IMG/VR virus record: IMGVR_UViG_3300001528_000580
Location: 64,001-128,000 of that record
From: a virus
Lineage: Duplodnaviria > Caudoviricetes
Reading direction: 5' to 3' (one strand)
DNA length: 64,000 nt
Shown here: in pieces, positions 9,163 to 28,114 of the stretch
How positions within the stretch are numbered: the stretch's first letter is position 1
How the letters are laid out: every line of letters starts with the position of its first letter
Notes under the pieces: model-generated
Told to the model about the DNA's origin: nothing
Database searches by the model: none
The model's input: only the letters and a program-made list of their open reading frames with translations
Translations under genes and position numbers: made by a program

Positions 9163-9181
9163 AATTTCTACTTATGTAGAT
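9163..9181 (+). CRISPR. solitary Cas12a-type repeat handle AATTTCTACTTATGTAGAT
   Basis: Matches the 19-nt type V-A crRNA handle AATTTCTACT-NNN-GTAGAT. Confidence 0.8.
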
Positions 9182-9322: not shown

Positions 9323-9341
9323 AATTTCTACTCGTGTAGAT
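9323..9341 (+). CRISPR. solitary Cas12a-type repeat handle AATTTCTACTCGTGTAGAT
   Basis: Type V-A handle, loop variant. Confidence 0.8.
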
Positions 9342-21050: not shown

Positions 21051-21506
21051 TTAAACAAGTTGATCTAATACTGCAAAAAGTACTAAATTATCTACTTTTG
21101 GAAATCTTTCTTTCAAAAGTTCGCAACAATCATAATAGGAAATTTCATGAGCTTGATATTGCGAATAAAATCTTTTACTTTTATCATAAATGCAAGAATA
21201 CAACATAATATTTCTTTCTTGAAGTTCAGTAATTACCATTTGGTAAAACATTTTCCTTGCAATATCATAGCAAAAATTATCTATTGTTTGTGTATTACAA
21301 TCCAATACTTTTGACATTTGATTTTTATATTCTTCTGAAATTTTTTCTTTTAACTCAAGAAGAACTGTAAATTCTTTTTCATGTTGTTCAAAACAATCAA
21401 AGGAATGAATTGCTACTGTACTTTTTTTAGAAAGAGTAGTTTCATATCTTGTATTAAAGATATCTGTATCATTATTCAAGACATCAGCAATGGTGTTGAA
21501 ACTCAT
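21051..21506 (-). CDS. hypothetical protein
   Basis: ORF, RBS and - strand promoter. Confidence 0.7.
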   Translation of the reverse strand: MSFNTIADVLNNDTDIFNTRYETTLSKKSTVAIHSFDCFEQHEKEFTVLLELKEKISEEYKNQMSKVLDCNTQTIDNFCYDIARKMFYQMVITELQERNIMLYSCIYDKSKRFYSQYQAHEISYYDCCELLKERFPKVDNLVLFAVLDQLV

Positions 21507-21976
21507 TTAAAACATTCCTTGTTCTTTAAGGTTGATATTATTATGTTCATGTTTTCCAATATAGCATATTTTTTTGAAATGTCAATATATCATTTTAAAA
21601 TCTATTAAGTTTTTTTGTTATTCATTTAAAGCGATTATAAGGCTCACATAGTTTGTGTGCATATATACACTGGTATTTTTAAATAACATGGCTGTATTTT
21701 CACGGAAATGCCTTTATTTCCTTTCCTATAATATAAAGAACGATTGTGTTTTATGTTTATGGATGACATGAAATAAATTTATCTGATAGTAGATGAATCA
21801 TTTTTAAATCTATAGCAAGAATGAATCGGATTCATTCTACAGGTCAAAATTTGAATTCGTTTCAATCTCAAGGGTCAAAATGAATCAGATTCATTTATAG
21901 AAAAAATAGGTGGAATGTATTTGATTTTTTCTATAAACATGTTATGTTATATAAAAACTATAAGGATATAAGAAAA

Positions 21977-22327
21977 ATGAAAGCTCCATATTATTCATGT
22001 GCATGTGGAAATTGTGATTTTTATAATTTTGCATTAAAAAAATGTATGAAACATGACTTTGATATTAATCCTTGTTATAATTGTTGTCCAGATTTTCAAA
22101 GACTCCGTGTTAAAGTAGGAGATAAAATCAAATTTGAATGGATGGGAGATATTGTAGAACAAACTGTTGTGAAAATTCATCCTTTTTTGGATTCAGAACG
22201 TTACGAAGTTGAATTTCCTGTCAAAAATGTAGCTCATCATAAAGTTTCTCCTGCTTCTATTATTATTGATCCTAATGATAACAGAAGATATACTAATGTC
22301 ACAGTTATTTGGACAGAAAAATCATAA
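21977..22327 (+). CDS. Cys-rich hypothetical protein
   Basis: CGNC...C...CC motif. Confidence 0.7.
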   Translation: MKAPYYSCACGNCDFYNFALKKCMKHDFDINPCYNCCPDFQRLRVKVGDKIKFEWMGDIVEQTVVKIHPFLDSERYEVEFPVKNVAHHKVSPASIIIDPNDNRRYTNVTVIWTEKS

Positions 22328-22498
22328 ATTTTTTTCAAAATTGAACTTGAAAAACCAAAATCATGTGTTATATTAAGTTTTGTTGACAGAGAAAAGCAGT
22401 TGTGAAAACAATACATATCAAAGTCAATAAAAAAAATGAAAAAAAGTTCTGAATTGAACTTGAAAAAAACAAAACTCGATGTATATTGAGTAATGTGA

Positions 22499-22525
22499 CA
22501 GGGAAAACCTGATGCTGATTGAAAA
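22499..22525 (+). promoter_or_regulatory. boxB-like hairpin plus boxA-like antitermination leader (duplicated at 24461-24486)
   Basis: CAGG-GAAA(A)-CCTG then TGCTGATTGAAAA directly after promoters. Confidence 0.55.
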
Positions 22526-22531
22526 AAATTA

Positions 22532-22778
22532 AACTTATGAGCGGTAGGCTTAGAAGTAGCCATCCGATAATGAGTGAAAGGAACCACCAATTAGTGCAAA
22601 ATGTCAAGAAATATCTAATGGTTCAATTATAAACGACTTAGAATCGATAAACTTGATTCAAGGTATATGTTGATGATGTGCATTTGGTAAAATGGGAATA
22701 AGCATGGTTAATGACCATCACCCAGATTAGATAATACTATGGGGTCGCTTTCTTTGGTGTAATAACACATCATAAGTT
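22532..22778 (+). ncRNA. 23S rRNA H43/H44 (GAC, uL11-site) mimic RNA, copy 1
   Basis: GGTAGGCTTAGAAGTAGCCATCC...GAGT-[insert]-GTGTAATAACACA, closed by aacttatga/tcataagtt. Confidence 0.8.
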
Positions 22779-22800
22779 CTTTTTTATAAATGCTGTTTGA

Positions 22801-22819
22801 AATTTCTACTTATGTAGAT
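22801..22819 (+). CRISPR. solitary Cas12a-type repeat handle
   Basis: AATTTCTACTTATGTAGAT. Confidence 0.8.
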
Positions 22820-22931
22820 AAAATTATTAGAATGTCAAAACTTTTAATTTGTGAAATTTTGTGAGTTGGACTATTATTGTTATAACTCAATAATGAAAAT
22901 AGTAACAAATGAACCGACAAGTTGAATATAA

Positions 22932-23016
22932 CATGTCGATGAAAGTATCTTGCGAGTGTGGTTTGGTGACACCTTCTGCGAGTATTTCGTGGAGATAGAG
23001 GTTCGATTCCTACATG
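22932..23016 (+). ncRNA. tRNA-like element (T-arm plus long irregular stem)
   Basis: AGG-TTCGATT-CCT T-loop, catgt/acatg closing stem. Confidence 0.4.
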
Positions 23017-23143
23017 AAAAATCGAAAGTATTGTGATAGCAATTATAATTTGCTAATGTCTTCGGACGATCATTAAGTTGAGGCGCATAAATACTTAATG
23101 ATGATAATGTCACTATCACGGCATTCTTTTTTTAGATTTAAAT

Positions 23144-23219
23144 GGACCGTTAGCTCAGTGGTTAGAGCAGGAAACTCATAATTTCTTGGTCGGGGGTTCA
23201 AGTCCCTCACGGTCCACCA
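23144..23219 (+). tRNA. tRNA-CAT (probably Ile2; elongator Met possible)
   Basis: Cloverleaf, CTCATAA loop, G1-C72, CCA. Confidence 0.93.
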
Positions 23220-23487
23220 TTTAAAATTCCCATCTACTCGATGTAAAGAGTCGGCAAAACATCTAACGCCGTTAAATTGATGTGTTTTCCTCAAGGCTAA
23301 CGAGGTTTTTTACCAACAGTTTTTAAAATTAAAACGGTTGGCTCTGATGAGATGGGTTATAAACCTAATTGGTGAGTAACCGAAACATAAAGGTACAGTC
23401 TTTACCTTTAGTGATGGTAAAACATAGACACAATTTTGACGTTAATCATGTTAGCGTTGCTCCATGCTATTAGCTAGTCATGAGTTA

Positions 23488-23549
23488 TGGATGCTGTTGG
23501 TTAGTAGGAGCGCAATTAGCTCTGACGGGGTTCAACTCCCTGCAATCCA
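23488..23549 (+). ncRNA. tRNA-like mini RNA lacking a D-stem
   Basis: tggat/atcca, gagc/gctc hairpin, GACGGGGTTCAACTCCCTG T-arm. Confidence 0.4.
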
Positions 23550-23609
23550 GTTTCTTCAAGTGGTTGCAAACTCTTGAAGATGCTCTTGAGCATTGAGCAA
23601 AAGCGAAAG

Positions 23610-23646
23610 CAACATAGATGACAGCTTGGAAAGACAAGCGATTATG
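23610..23646 (+). ncRNA. possible C4-antisense-like hairpin
   Basis: TGACAGCTTGGAAAGACAAGC resembles the GACAGCnnGGAAAGACnnGC motif (recalled, not searched). Confidence 0.35.
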
Positions 23647-23652
23647 ATTTTT

Positions 23653-23711
23653 AGTCAGAGGGCATTGGTCAAGACCAATCGATTACGTGGTGTAGTGAAG
23701 CATATCTGACT
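23653..23711 (+). ncRNA. permuted tRNA-like element (T-arm, mini acceptor loop, D-arm)
   Basis: agtcaga/tctgact closes attgg-tcaaga-ccaat, cg-atta-cg, TG-GTGT-AGTGAA-GCAT. Confidence 0.5.
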
Positions 23712-23844
23712 TTTGTTTTCCAAATTTTTCTCTCTTTTTGGTTGGCTAGTAGATAAATATTTATCTACTAGCTTTTTTATTTTCAAACTATTGAATTTAT
23801 TGTATATTGTGTTATATTATATTAAATTCATACAAGGAAAAATA

Positions 23845-24393
23845 ATGCGTAGAAAAGAAATACATAAACCAGATCATCCAAATGCATATAAAAATGGTAA
23901 TATTTTAGAATATGTTTATATTGCATCAAAAAAATTAAATAGACCATTATTGAAAGGTGAGATTGTTCATCATATAGATGAAAATCCATTTAATAATGAT
24001 GAAGATAACCTAATGGTATTTGCTACAAAATCAGATCATAATAAATTTCATGCAAATGGACTTGATTTTAACATAGTTGAAAAATTAAGTAATGGTTCTT
24101 ATAAAATAAAAGATGATGTTATGCTAATAAGTAGCAAAGAATTTATTTGTGAATATTGTCATAAGAGATTTATTGCAGAAAAAATAAATCATAAGAAAAA
24201 TAAAATATATTGTTCAATTGAATGTTCAAATAAAGATAAAGAAAAGTTCGATATTCCAATTGAACAATTAAAAGAACTAGTTAAAACATATAATTTAACC
24301 AAAATAGGAAAAATGTTTGGTGTTTCTGACAATGCAATCAGGAAAAGATGTATTAAAAATAACATCGATTTTAAAAATAAGAAAAAATCATAA
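23845..24393 (+). CDS. HNH homing-type endonuclease with Zn finger and C-terminal HTH
   Basis: VHHIDENPFNN..NL..H, CEYC/CSIEC, GVSDNAIRK. Confidence 0.85.
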   Translation: MRRKEIHKPDHPNAYKNGNILEYVYIASKKLNRPLLKGEIVHHIDENPFNNDEDNLMVFATKSDHNKFHANGLDFNIVEKLSNGSYKIKDDVMLISSKEFICEYCHKRFIAEKINHKKNKIYCSIECSNKDKEKFDIPIEQLKELVKTYNLTKIGKMFGVSDNAIRKRCIKNNIDFKNKKKS

Positions 24394-24491
24394 AAAAATT
24401 CAATTTTTTTATTTTGGGAGCTTGAAAAAAACAATATTTGGTGTATATTAAGTATTGTAACAGGGAAACCTGATGCTATTTGAAAAATTAT

Positions 24492-24569
24492 AGAGGTGCT
24501 TGGAAAAACTTTCAACGAGTAGACTTTTAATCTAAATACGTGCAAACAGGTTTTTTCGCTTATTCCTCT
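24492..24569 (+). ncRNA. scaffold RNA displaying a tRNA-Lys(UUU)-like anticodon arm
   Basis: agagg/cctct scaffold shared with 26105-26244; taga-CTTTTAA-tcta. Confidence 0.6.
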
Positions 24570-24657
24570 TTTTTTCAAATATTTTTAAAAATAATACTTG
24601 AAAAAATCAATATTAGGTGTATATTAAGTATTGTAATAGGGAGACATGATATTTGAA

Positions 24658-24725
24658 AATTTCTACTTATGTAGATAAACAAGGAAAACTTGAGGTTGAT
24701 TAAAAAAATTTCTACTTATGTAGAT
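24658..24725 (+). CRISPR. Cas12a-type mini-array: handle, 30 nt, handle
   Basis: AATTTCTACTTATGTAGAT at 24658-24676 and 24707-24725, just after a promoter. Confidence 0.8.
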
Positions 24726-24988
24726 AAACATTAGAAACAAATGGTGAAAAGCCGTCAGGAATCTACCCATCACGCACCATGATTAGTGATGTGGTTTACT
24801 GAAAACGAGGTACGAAAGAACAGAGTCTTTTTGAGTATATCTCATAAGCTATAGCGTACAACGAGGCGATGCTAGTGAAATGCAATAAAAGTAGCGGTCA
24901 TGGTACAACCTGCATAGGATGTGGAGTAGACTGAAATATATCAGCTACGTATCAAGAAATTGATTAAACATGTAATTTCTAATGTTTT
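24726..24988 (+). ncRNA. about 260-nt multibranched structured RNA
   Basis: aaacattagaaa/tttctaatgttt closing stem; tcag-tctac/gtaga-ctga and accatga/tcatggt inner stems; no ORF. Confidence 0.6.
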
Positions 24989-25330
24989 TTGCTCTTATGA
25001 GCTGATGGACTTGTACTCAATTGCAACTTAACATTATTCATAATGTTGATGTAAAAGGTCTGACGTACAGTACCTAAAATAAAGTAATGACCTGCCTAGA
25101 TTGAAGCACTAGAAACTTATGCTTCACAGCTTTATGTCGATATTGAGCTGTTTATCCGTAGGATAAAAAATAATCGGTAATCCAAGATGTAATTCTTAGC
25201 ATTGCAAGCATACTAAGTGAGGATTTAAAACATTAATAACTTGATGCTGATAGGTAAGCTATCACTTTTTCAAGATTTTTTTATATTTATCATATATGTG
25301 TAAAATATAAATAATGTTGATTGAAAATTT

Positions 25331-25622
25331 TGTCAAAAGTTGAAATGTTGGATTAGAGGCATCCATCATCTAAGGAGTAACCCACGACATTGAACATTGC
25401 AACTGTAATCACTGATACTTAAAAAGGAAACACTTACAATAAACCAGTGAGCCATAATTAACTGAATAATGACAAAAACTGTTAGGTTGGTATAAGTGAT
25501 AACTTTAAAAGAATGTGATATGCTTACATGTCCTAATTCAGTAGGAAGGTTCGATGGCTAACGAGGAGCATGAGATTACATGCTGAAAGGTTTTTGGCAT
25601 AAAAGCACATCAAGTTTTGACA
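25331..25622 (+). ncRNA. 23S rRNA H43/H44 mimic RNA, copy 2
   Basis: ATGTTGGATTAGAGGCATCCATCATCTAAGGAGT-[insert]-GCATAAAAGCACA, closed by tgtcaaaagttga/tcaagttttgaca. Confidence 0.8.
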
Positions 25623-25649
25623 TTTTTATTCATACAATATAATTGTATA

Positions 25650-25761
25650 GCTATCATGCTAGCTAACTCGTGATACATCAGTGGTTAAAAGGAGCTGTAT
25701 ATCACTGAAAGAGTTTGAACTTACAGCTTGAAAAACTTGATCATGATTGTGGTGCGATAGT
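25650..25761 (+). ncRNA. pseudoknotted ncRNA
   Basis: cagtggt/atcactg interleaved with agctgta/tacagct. Confidence 0.45.
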
Positions 25762-26104
25762 TTTTCTTCTTGACCCACACATGGAGTTGGTTAGCTACCA
25801 ATACTCCATGATTTTTATGAAAAAAGTTCAGAAATGAGCTTGAAAATAAAAAAATCAATGCTATATTATAGTATTGAAAGAAAAAAATAGACGATAGCAT
25901 GGAGACGTTTTTCTTGAAATAAAGAAAAATTTAGACAATGCAACTAACTTGAAAATTTGATGGTTCAATCAAGTTACGGAGCTATTCTGAAAGAGATAGC
26001 AATTATTATCAGAAATCATTTAGCTTATGGATGTGAAAGCTATGAACTTATGTTCTAAAGTATGTCAAAGAGATATATAATCATTTTTGCTGATTGAAAA
26101 TTAT

Positions 26105-26244
26105 AGAGGTGGCATAAAAACGTTCAACGCTGATAACGTCGAGGCTGTAGGTTCGAGTCCTATTATTATAGATAGATAATATCAAACTATAATATAGCTC
26201 AATTGGGTAGAGCACGTAAAAAATGTTTTTATAGTAATTCCTCT
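26105..26244 (+). ncRNA. circularly permuted tRNA-Ile(GAT)-like RNA (YrlA-like topology) in shared scaffold
   Basis: Order is anticodon loop, T-arm, acceptor hairpin, D-arm; all arms pair. Confidence 0.75.
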
Positions 26245-26258
26245 TTTTATAAATTCAT

Positions 26259-26347
26259 GTCTGGGTATGCGAATTGGCATAGCAAATTGACTTAAAATCA
26301 ATTGTATTCCGAAAGGTATGAGGGTTCGAGTCCCTCCCCAGATACCA
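26259..26347 (+). tRNA. tRNA-Leu(TAA)
   Basis: Cloverleaf with long variable arm, CTTAAAA loop, CCA. Confidence 0.93.
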
Positions 26348-26492
26348 TTTTTACCCAAGAGATTAAATAAAAAATAATCTCTTGGGTTTTTTTATGTATT
26401 TTTCTTAAATTAACGGTTCGAGTCCAGTTTTAATATTTTTTTATATTTTCTTTTATATGAAAAATTTTAATATGAAAGGAAGATATTAAAAA

Positions 26493-27467
26493 ATGACTAA
26501 ATATACTTTAGATGAATTTAGAGATGCAGTAGCTAACAGCAATAATATAAGACAAGTATGTTTAAAATTAAATATATCAGCTTATGGTGGTAGTTATGAA
26601 TATATAAAAAGAAAAATAAAAAAATATAATATTGATACAAGCCATTTTAATAAAAAATCAACAAAAAGAATTACTTGTTTTTCATTACCATTAGATATAA
26701 TTTTAGTCAAGGGAAGTTTTTATACAAATACATCTGTTTTAAAAAATAGATTAATTGCAAATGGAATATTAGAAAACAAATGTTATAGTTGTCAAAGGAC
26801 AAAGTGTGAAATTAATGGAAAAATGATAAATATGCCATTAGAATTACATCATATTGATGGTGACAGAAACAATAATGAAATAGAAAATTTAACTTTATTA
26901 TGTCCAATATGCCATAATTTGACTACTAATTTCAGGGGAAAGAAAAAAGTTAAAAAATTGTATATGTATTGTAAAAAATGTCATAAAGAAATTAGACAAA
27001 ATAAGTATGAATTATGTAAAGATTGTTATGTTGAAGAAAATTATCCAAGAGAAACAAAAGTATATCCAGCGTTTTGTTCAGAATGTGGAAGAGAACTTAA
27101 TAAATCAAAATCAGGATTATGTAGATCGTGTATTAATAAGAAAATGACTACACTTAATAAACCAAGTAAAGAAGTATTAGAAAAAGAGATACAAGAGAAT
27201 AGCTTTCTAGCATTAGGAAGAAAATATGGAGTTTCAGATAATGCTGTTAGAAAATGGTGCAAACAATATGGTATTGATTTTAAACATGGAATAAGAAAAG
27301 AATCTTTACAAGGATTAAAAAAAGGCAGAGAAACTCAAGCATATCAAGCAAAATTAAAAAGAATATGTCCTAAATGTGGGAAAAAGAAATCACCAGATTC
27401 AGAATTGTGTAGAACATGTTATTTAGAAGAAGAATTAAAGAAAAAACAAGCAACATATTTAAATTAA
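26493..27467 (+). CDS. HNH endonuclease with multiple Zn fingers and HTH
   Basis: LELHHIDGDRNNNEIENLTLLCPICH, CxxC pairs, GVSDNAVRKW. Confidence 0.88.
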   Translation: MTKYTLDEFRDAVANSNNIRQVCLKLNISAYGGSYEYIKRKIKKYNIDTSHFNKKSTKRITCFSLPLDIILVKGSFYTNTSVLKNRLIANGILENKCYSCQRTKCEINGKMINMPLELHHIDGDRNNNEIENLTLLCPICHNLTTNFRGKKKVKKLYMYCKKCHKEIRQNKYELCKDCYVEENYPRETKVYPAFCSECGRELNKSKSGLCRSCINKKMTTLNKPSKEVLEKEIQENSFLALGRKYGVSDNAVRKWCKQYGIDFKHGIRKESLQGLKKGRETQAYQAKLKRICPKCGKKKSPDSELCRTCYLEEELKKKQATYLN

Positions 27468-27541
27468 TTTAAACAATTATAAGTTATAGATATTATATTA
27501 ATATAACTATTAATAACTTATTTATTATAAGGATAAAAATA

Positions 27542-28114
27542 ATGTTAGATGATAATAAATTATACTGTATACAATGTGGTAAAGAAAGAGAATTAGGAAG
27601 AAGATATTGTAAAGAATGTCATAAAAAAGTTCAAAGAGAAAGATTCAGAGAAAAATATAAAACTAAAGGAAGATATAGATATACTATTACTTGTATGTTT
27701 TGTAATGAATTATATAATTTAGCGGTAAGAAAAGATCAAAAGTTTTGCGAAAATTGTTGGAAAGAGAGATTACAATTTATAACTAAATATCATTCGACAA
27801 ATCAATATGAAAATAAGTTTGGTCAAAATAAACATAGACAAATTGTAGAATCAATATTGAATAGAAAGTTGTTTTATAATGAAGTAGTTCATCATTTAGA
27901 TCATAATCCAATTAATAATTCTATTGATAATATTATAGTTTTAGAAAGAAAGGATCATATGGCATTACATAATTATTTATATGATTATGAATTTAAATTA
28001 TATAAATTACATGGAAAACAGTATAAAGAATATTGGAATGGAACAATAGAAAAAGATGTTACATTAAAATATCTTAATGAAAATAAAATAAATTATATTT
28101 CTTTTGAAAACTAA
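27542..28114 (+). CDS. HNH endonuclease with N-terminal Zn fingers
   Basis: HRQIVE...VVHHLDHNPINN..N...H. Confidence 0.85.
   Translation: MLDDNKLYCIQCGKERELGRRYCKECHKKVQRERFREKYKTKGRYRYTITCMFCNELYNLAVRKDQKFCENCWKERLQFITKYHSTNQYENKFGQNKHRQIVESILNRKLFYNEVVHHLDHNPINNSIDNIIVLERKDHMALHNYLYDYEFKLYKLHGKQYKEYWNGTIEKDVTLKYLNENKINYISFEN

Follow-up and report, generated by a model that had tools for sequence, protein, structure and literature searches.

Two resemblances to the GTPase-associated centre in a gut phage

The DNA analysed here is a stretch of 64,000 nt (the window; positions 64,001 to 128,000 of the IMG/VR virus record IMGVR_UViG_3300001528_000580) from a 441-kb gut phage, whose record of 440,868 bp has terminal repeats and a G+C content of 25%. 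From 22330 to 26490 the window has almost no open reading frames (ORFs) apart from one HNH endonuclease gene, and this non-coding island of about 4 kb contains two elements that resemble the GTPase-associated centre (GAC) of 23S ribosomal RNA (rRNA). An earlier note on the window had claimed that two stretches align nucleotide by nucleotide to the GAC, and we confirmed the alignment at 22532-22778 (copy 1) and 25331-25621 (copy 2). The reference for the comparison was the E. coli 58-mer 1051-1108, which was checked as 100% identical to E. coli 23S rRNA (the rrn operon was used), and the compared core comprises E. coli positions 1056-1103 (48 positions). The parts of the two copies are as follows.

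22532-22575, + strand: 5' half of copy 1; GAC 1056-1090 (H43, turn 1082-1086, 5' strand of H44) after the closing-stem strand 22532-22540
22576-22756, + strand: copy 1 insert, 181 nt; GAAAG/CTTTC closure and TTTG end
22757-22785, + strand: copy 1, 3' half; GAC 1091-1103 (H44 loop with A1095, and U1092-A1099), stem strand 22770-22778 and T-run 22777-22785
25331-25378, + strand: 5' half of copy 2; GAC 1056-1090, with A1064-U1074 and C1082-G1086, after the closing-stem strand 25331-25343
25379-25595, + strand: copy 2 insert, 217 nt; AACC/GGTT closure and TTTG end
25596-25629, + strand: copy 2, 3' half; GAC 1091-1103 (A1093, A1095), stem strand 25609-25621 and T-rich tail 25622-25629

The core of copy 1 (G1056 at 22541, U1090 at 22575, G1091 at 22757, A1103 at 22769) is identical to E. 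coli at 35 of the 48 positions and that of copy 2 (A1056 at 25344, U1090 at 25378, G1091 at 25596, A1103 at 25608) at 37, and the match of both copies to the 23S GAC is far beyond chance. The closing-stem strands pair over 9 bp in copy 1 and over 13 positions, with one G.G mismatch, in copy 2. Every substitution that had been listed is present in the sequence, namely C1057-G1081, G1058-C1080, A1061, A1082-U1086 and a full swap of the base triple to U1072/U1092-A1099 in copy 1, and A1064-U1074 and C1082-G1086 in copy 2, which also has A1093. Likewise, A1067, G1071, G1091-C1100, A1088 and A1095 are kept in both copies, as had been stated, and so is U1060. Both copies pair at all six H43 positions (1057-1059/1079-1081 and 1062-1064/1074-1076), and both have the H44 pairs 1087-1102, 1090-1101, 1091-1100 and 1092-1099 and the 1082-1086 pair. 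At 1089 both have G and E. coli has A, and the pair 1090-1101 is U-A in both copies against A-U in E. coli. The different inserts at the same point after 1090, with their closures and TTTG ends, were found as described.

No family of Rfam 15 covers either copy. At the gathering threshold the whole window gave only transfer RNAs (tRNAs), and at E values up to 10 nothing was found on either copy in the region 21500-27500; there was no large-subunit rRNA match and no flanking rRNA around the copies in the Rfam 15 search. In a blastn search against 50,697 phage records, the region was matched only in its tRNA and HNH parts. Because no ORF covers either copy, a promoter cassette ends 45 nt before copy 1, and the copies have their own closing helix and T-run, the reading as two free-standing non-coding RNAs is supported over that of rRNA debris. 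The closing helix and T-run of copy 1 resemble an intrinsic terminator, so that copy 1 probably has its own promoter and a terminator-like end. Copy 2 is preceded only by a weak promoter-like site, with a box like TGATTGAAAA at 25317-25327, 3 nt upstream of its closing stem; since it shares this box with copy 1, copy 2 may be processed out of a longer island transcript, or it may be transcribed from the weak promoter.

The phage RNA family, its fold and its inserts

These RNAs are not peculiar to this phage; the window copies are two members of a very large phage family. A scan of IMG/VR viral contigs with a motif of the H43 loop (scan A) gave at least 116 stretches, of which only one was a true 23S gene and about 70 had the same architecture as the window copies. 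Because the pattern of scan A itself fixed many loop positions of the members, an independent scan of the same contigs used the 3' half motif only (scan B) and gave at least 119 stretches. The two scans yielded more than 110 members, on contigs of 30-69% G+C. We trained a covariance model (R1; 162 model positions) on 22 members from other phages, with neither window copy included. R1 matched both window copies at full length (model positions 1-162 of 162; copy 1, 91.4 bits, E 7e-24; copy 2, 63.8 bits, E 3e-16). There were no R1 matches beyond the two copies in the window and the 441-kb genome, and a fuzzy motif scan of the genome agreed. The new loci of scan B were aligned to R1, giving 55 matches, from which 30 distinct 5' halves were tabulated.

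Members are built alike: the closing helix is followed by an H43 part with GAGU at its end, then by an insert of 45-338 nt whose last letters are UUUG, and then by GCGUAAYAGCAC, in which position 1101 is A. In a set of 60 distinct members of canonical spacing, the signature residues G1089 (59/60), U1090 (59/60) and A1101 (60/60) are nearly constant, in part because the search patterns fixed them. Both window copies carry the signature, with the insert stem directly after 1090 and UUUG before G1091. These derived characters (G1089, U1090-A1101, the insert stem and UUUG) argue for one origin of the family rather than repeated capture of rRNA. The mean identity of the family to bacterial rRNA is 40.1 of 48 positions (about 83%). 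The 3' motif was found in only 57 stretches in a cellular set of 185,579 species genomes, mostly in contigs of metagenome-assembled genomes and also in a few isolates, and in many phyla; therefore the family is phage-borne and not tied to one host group. It is abundant, crosses bacterial phyla, and is absent from Rfam 15 and from the full-text literature searched, in which we found no description of a phage RNA family of this kind, in line with the earlier note.

The cores of copy 1 and copy 2 agree at no more than 32 of 48 positions, and no pair in the family has a lower value, whereas each is nearer to copies in other phages (43/48). Because of this difference, the two copies are ancient paralogues or separate acquisitions, and not the product of a recent duplication. 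Two GAC-mimic copies close together were also seen in three other loci, L138 (3766-4087 and 4857-4944), L127 and L089, and multiple copies thus recur in the family.

The helices of the GAC covary across the family. Among the 60 members, the pair 1057/1081 is A-U in 50 and C-G in 10, 1058/1080 occurs as all four Watson-Crick pairs, and 1082/1086 is U-A in 29, C-G in 21 and A-U in 5. At the 1072/1092/1099 triple, C/C-G (50) and U/U-A (8) account for all but 2 members, and these 2 have partial states. In an alignment of 58 sequences, for which shuffled and slid controls were made, 1092/1099 is C-G in 49 and U-A in 9 and 1082/1086 has three pair types; 95.8% of the cells pair (73.4% in shuffles), and the covariation score is 0.58 (0.15 when shuffled, at most 0.16 in slid controls). 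The pairs of the H43 stem are formed in 99.7% of the family cells, with covariation at 1057/1081, 1058/1080 and 1064/1074, and the closing helix covaries at all seven pairs tested. Because the pairs covary and the 1072/1092/1099 triple swaps as a unit, the tertiary fold of the GAC appears to be under selection. The proposal that the three-dimensional mimic is selected, and is not rRNA debris, is thus upheld by covariation at 1082/1086 and 1072/1092/1099 in more than 100 phage contigs.

In the 30 independently ascertained 5' halves from scan B, the stem and tertiary-contact nucleotides G1059, U1060, G1063, U1066, G1071, C1075, A1077 and C1079 are invariant and U1078 is often C. A1067 is kept in both window copies but varies across the family, with 22 A, 6 G and 2 U among these halves, and position 1068 is divided between G (16) and A (14). 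In the H44 loop, A1095 is kept in 55 and G1093 in 58 of the 60 members. A1067 is a contact of thiostrepton and translation factors, and A1095 is also a factor-contact adenine. By sequence, there is less variation in the fold and the H43 stem than at the adenine contacting thiostrepton and the factors. The variation at A1067 speaks against binding of factors or thiostrepton as the constraint shared by the family; it weakens both of these readings relative to uL11 binding and fits recognition of the fold better.

This variation bears on one alternative, in which the RNA is a trap or platform for factors and, alone or with uL11 and perhaps the uL10/bL12 stalk, binds EF-G, EF-Tu, IF2, RF3 or RelA away from the ribosome, which would redirect or dampen translation or the stringent response. 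Both window copies keep the two factor-contact adenines, and isolated GAC and sarcin-ricin oligonucleotides reportedly bind EF-G (Munishkin and Wool, 1997). A sarcin-ricin-like hairpin, which would complete both rRNA elements of the factor site, occurs in some relatives with long inserts, such as L068 with AGUACGGGAGGAA. However, this hairpin was found in only 1 of 69 inserts by a strict pattern and in 3 with at most two mismatches, and in neither window insert nor elsewhere in the island. The substitutions at A1067 (8/30) and G1068 (14/30) also speak against a factor site, and the closing helix varies so freely that a sequence-specific uL10 site is unlikely. We regard the factor trap as quite unlikely.

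The insert is universal in the family and always enters at the 1090/1091 junction, and it is highly diverse in sequence and in length. Across the family, the large inserted domain that had been noted is a site of variable expansion (45-338 nt) rather than a conserved domain. Inserts at the lower end of the range (45-67 nt) amount to hardly more than a hairpin. The copy 1 insert contains a module, GUGC-AAA-UGU / AUG-A-UGUGC with an AAA bulge, which is common to eight other members and is retained via one compensatory change from A-U to C-G. We rejected the idea that this module is a likeness of the flanks of H42 in E. coli 23S rRNA, because the similar strings do not face each other in the rRNA. 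The copy 1 insert has weak local similarity to the members L040, L038, L011, L042 and L085. Otherwise, blastn of the inserts against all other fetched loci gave no match (for copy 2, none at an E value of 0.1 or better), and neither insert matched an Rfam family. The copy 2 insert is without similarity to any other insert examined. As judged from these comparisons, the inserts are lineage-specific.

One could suppose that the GAC fold is a mere compact, ion-stabilised scaffold, reused as T-loops are, which presents or protects the insert as the functional part. The constant position and the diversity of the inserts agree with this, as do the unrelated inserts of the two window copies and the insert modules that recur across phages and covary. 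A scaffold, however, would not need the high rRNA identity kept across phages of such different G+C content, including unpaired loop nucleotides without a known structural need, and the small size of the shortest inserts also counts against it. This explanation seems to us distinctly improbable.

The junction also resembles a splice site. As at group I splice sites, the insert has U1090 in front of it and ends in G in the two copies and in nearly all members, and HNH endonuclease genes lie nearby, so that a captured 23S fragment might be split by a small self-splicing intron or a mobile insertion. A group I intron was rejected, since there was no catalytic core match (RF00028), nor a match to any other Rfam ribozyme, at E values up to 10, and the inserts go down to 45 nt and have no common core. 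Moreover, the insert-free product would still be unlike rRNA, being a free 58-nt RNA with its own covarying helix and no flanking rRNA. We consider an origin of this kind very improbable indeed.

The genomic setting points to a stable RNA product, because 484 tRNA genes of the member loci share the strand of the RNA and only 4 are on the other one. For 31 of 69 members the distance from the core to a tRNA is 25 nt or less, which places the tRNA directly beyond a closing helix of 8-14 bp, and most members are probably released by tRNA-processing enzymes. In the window, distances of 374 and 491 nt separate the copies from the nearest tRNAs downstream on the same strand, and the island holds three tRNA genes (Met, Ile and Leu). 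No protein family recurs within 4 kb of the RNA (the most frequent was found at 9 of 168 loci), and no uL11 gene was found in the phage. Because of these two absences, the partner of the RNA is probably a universal component of the host.

In one family member (L147:1052-1180, IMG/VR contig 3300020172_006270), the closing helix and the 5' strand of H43 are identical to E. coli 23S 1046-1077 over 32 nt, and the sequence departs from the family plan after A1077. Nine members of the set that contains it have extra sequence after A1077, not, or not only, after 1090, which hints at another site of insertion or at an exchange of sequence with the rRNA of the host.

The non-coding island around the copies

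The copies share the island with repeated sequence elements; these, with their further copies in the window, and the HNH endonuclease genes are located as follows.

22459-22487, + strand: promoter cassette CTTGAAAA-N15-TATATT before copy 1; sigma-70-like (10/12), repeat family D1/D2
22346-22374, 22459-22487, 24421-24449, 24597-24625 and 25839-25867: island cassettes, exact matches; four more lie elsewhere in the window
22488-22531, + strand: conserved transcript leader; small hairpin (CAGG-GAAAA-CCTG) with the TGATTGAAAA box behind it; repeat families D2 and D4
22801-22819, 24658-24676, 24707-24725, 9163-9181 and 9323-9341: copies of AATTTCTACTNNTGTAGAT
23845-24393, 26493-27467 and 27542-28114: HNH endonuclease genes, which flank or interrupt the island; two have zinc ribbons

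The promoter cassette has nine exact matches in the window against 0.05 expected, and five of them are within the island. The leader recurs behind three cassettes (22459, 24421 and 24597), each time before a different small RNA, and its TGATTGAAAA box may be a processing or stabilising signal.

The sequence AATTTCTACTNNTGTAGAT, which we take to be the 19-nt handle of Cas12a (type V-A) CRISPR RNAs (crRNAs), has five copies in the window against 0.01 expected. Copy 1 is followed after 22 nt by one of them, and another two make up a unit of handle, 30 nt and handle just behind a promoter. No cas gene was seen near these handles. The elements look like RNA anti-CRISPRs (Racrs), a known class of phage RNA decoy (PMC10651486), or like viral crRNA-like RNAs (bioRxiv 10.1101/2024.10.29.618823).

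Several other parts of the island may encode structured RNAs. The stretch of about 540 nt between the handle pair and copy 2 (24726-25265) has no ORF and no Rfam match and a folding z-score of -2.4, and it may be a further large structured RNA. After tRNA-Met, a non-coding stretch of about 520 nt (23222-23740) has a folding z-score of -2.6; it includes, at 23490-23547, a tRNA-like arm that the mascRNA model matches weakly (E 2.5), and a strong terminator hairpin follows it at 23744-23773. Between copy 1 and tRNA-Met, the region 22900-23020 contains a T-arm-like string, GGTTCGATTCC, where neither ARAGORN nor Rfam called a tRNA; this may be a tRNA-like processing element. At 26101-26172 ARAGORN predicted a 'tRNA-Ile' below the Rfam tRNA threshold (23.6 bits), and a sub-threshold match to YrlA, a bacterial Y RNA-like family, was found at 26113-26236 (30.6 bits, E 0.0012). 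The region 26101-26236 may encode a Y-like RNA of the phage that includes a tRNA-like module (compare PMC4201824).

The three HNH genes that flank or interrupt the island suggest that it was shaped by homing-type mobility. We sought a syntenic homologue of the island via the neighbouring 324-aa gene (HNH endonuclease, one distant hit) and found none.

Possible roles and related systems

Our preferred reading, which we judge to have about an even chance of being correct, is that the GAC mimics are a large, phage-specific family of stable non-coding RNAs that imitate the GAC off the ribosome and bind a host protein, for which uL11 is the best candidate. The conservation pattern, the lack of a partner gene and the spread across phyla would be explained by a universal host ligand that reads the fold. 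Unless the isolated 58-nt RNA is folded, the C-terminal domain of uL11 does not bind it. The GAC can fold as an autonomous unit, and uL11 binding requires its tertiary fold (PMC6239185). In the proposed mechanism, a variable closing helix would replace H42, and above it would stand the H43/H44 domain (E. coli 1056-1103) including its tertiary contacts. H44 would be opened between 1090 and 1091 into a junction, from which the lineage-specific domain of 45-338 nt would protrude before the UUUG. The folded RNA would act off the ribosome by binding uL11, or another host protein that recognises the GAC fold. If uL11 were drained from ribosomes, RelA-dependent (p)ppGpp synthesis would be blunted; alternatively, an off-ribosome uL11-RNA particle could be built.

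Several points weigh against binding of uL11 as the common role. The insert enters H44 itself, and the folding z-scores against shuffled sequences are modest (-2.4 for copy 1 and -1.7 for copy 2). Draining uL11 from tens of thousands of ribosomes would demand a very abundant RNA. A uL11 sponge leaves unaccounted for the constant presence and the variability of the insert, as well as two maximally different copies in one phage, and the sarcin-ricin-like hairpin of some long-insert members would point to translation factors or ribosome-directed enzymes and not to uL11 alone. That uL11 tolerates changes at A1067 and thiostrepton does not is reportedly a result of work by Draper and by Cundliffe.

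Another possibility, which we think somewhat unlikely, is a decoy substrate that soaks up an enzyme attacking the GAC (an ADP-ribosyltransferase, nuclease or methyltransferase, from a defence system or a competitor), so that the ribosomes stay active. To our knowledge, no anti-phage system targets the GAC, which counts against this idea. The well-kept H44 loop would agree with it, since Tre23 ADP-ribosylates H44 at nt 1095-1098 and blocks the GTPase of EF-G (PMC8661411); Tre23, however, is an interbacterial type VI secretion system (T6SS) toxin. The usual home of the family in phage tRNA arrays, which are thought to offset attacks on the translation apparatus, is also in favour, and the different inserts and the two diverged copies could serve different attackers. 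The Cas12a-type handles would show that the island already deals in RNA imitation, which is circumstantial support for a decoy role. On the other hand, a competitive substrate must rival the ribosomes in number, and nothing ties the family to hosts that carry such toxins.

A combined model returns to host uL11 as the partner, and we hold it rather unlikely. The phage RNA and uL11, perhaps with the uL10/bL12 stalk, would form an off-ribosome replica of the factor-docking site in which the insert sets the target. The two copies would then be two devices with different partners: RelA-dependent alarm signalling could be silenced by one of them, and the other could intercept either a translation factor or a defence enzyme directed at the ribosome.

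We compared the phage RNAs with known systems. With the bacterial 23S GAC (the 58-nt uL11/thiostrepton fragment) they share, at the sequence level, length, register and helices over 1056-1103, the 1082-1086-type closing pair, the bulged A1088, U1060, and the G1071/G1091-C1100 and 1072/1092-1099 triples. In contrast to it, they lie outside rRNA, usually among tRNA genes, have their own variable closing helix, vary at A1067 and G1068, and consistently carry G1089 and U1090-A1101 together with a domain that is inserted between 1090 and 1091 and has UUUG after it. The leaders of ribosomal protein operons (L10 and L1 in Rfam) are likewise off-ribosome RNAs that copy the rRNA site of a ribosomal protein. 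They are, however, cis-acting 5' untranslated regions of cellular operons and copy only part of the site, whereas the phage RNAs are free-standing, lie next to no ribosomal protein gene, copy the whole domain down to its base triples and match no Rfam leader. We know of no established uL11-binding leader. Phage RNA decoys (Racrs, PMC10651486; pseudo-ToxI; phage tRNAs) also imitate a host RNA to occupy a host protein, but the RNA imitated by the GAC mimics is a functional domain of the ribosome. ROOL and GOLLD are structured, phage-borne and often beside tRNA genes as well (bioRxiv 10.1101/2024.12.08.627333); they are RNA-only cages with no reported rRNA mimicry and have no sequence or model match to the GAC mimics, and the paper on them makes no mention of such a family.

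Beyond the family itself, the new observations are the maximally diverged two-copy case, the promoter-driven island, the variation at A1067 and G1068, and the rarity in cellular genomes. If our preferred reading of the mimics is true, one of the ribosome's most conserved functional sites exists as a portable copy in phages, and rRNA would join tRNA and crRNA among the host RNAs imitated by phages. The RNAs would offer a testable route to the control of host translation or the stringent response by large phages, and to the question of whether still unknown host enzymes attack the GAC. The more than 100 natural variants and the tolerated insertion site in H44 would show how nature has engineered a textbook RNA fold.

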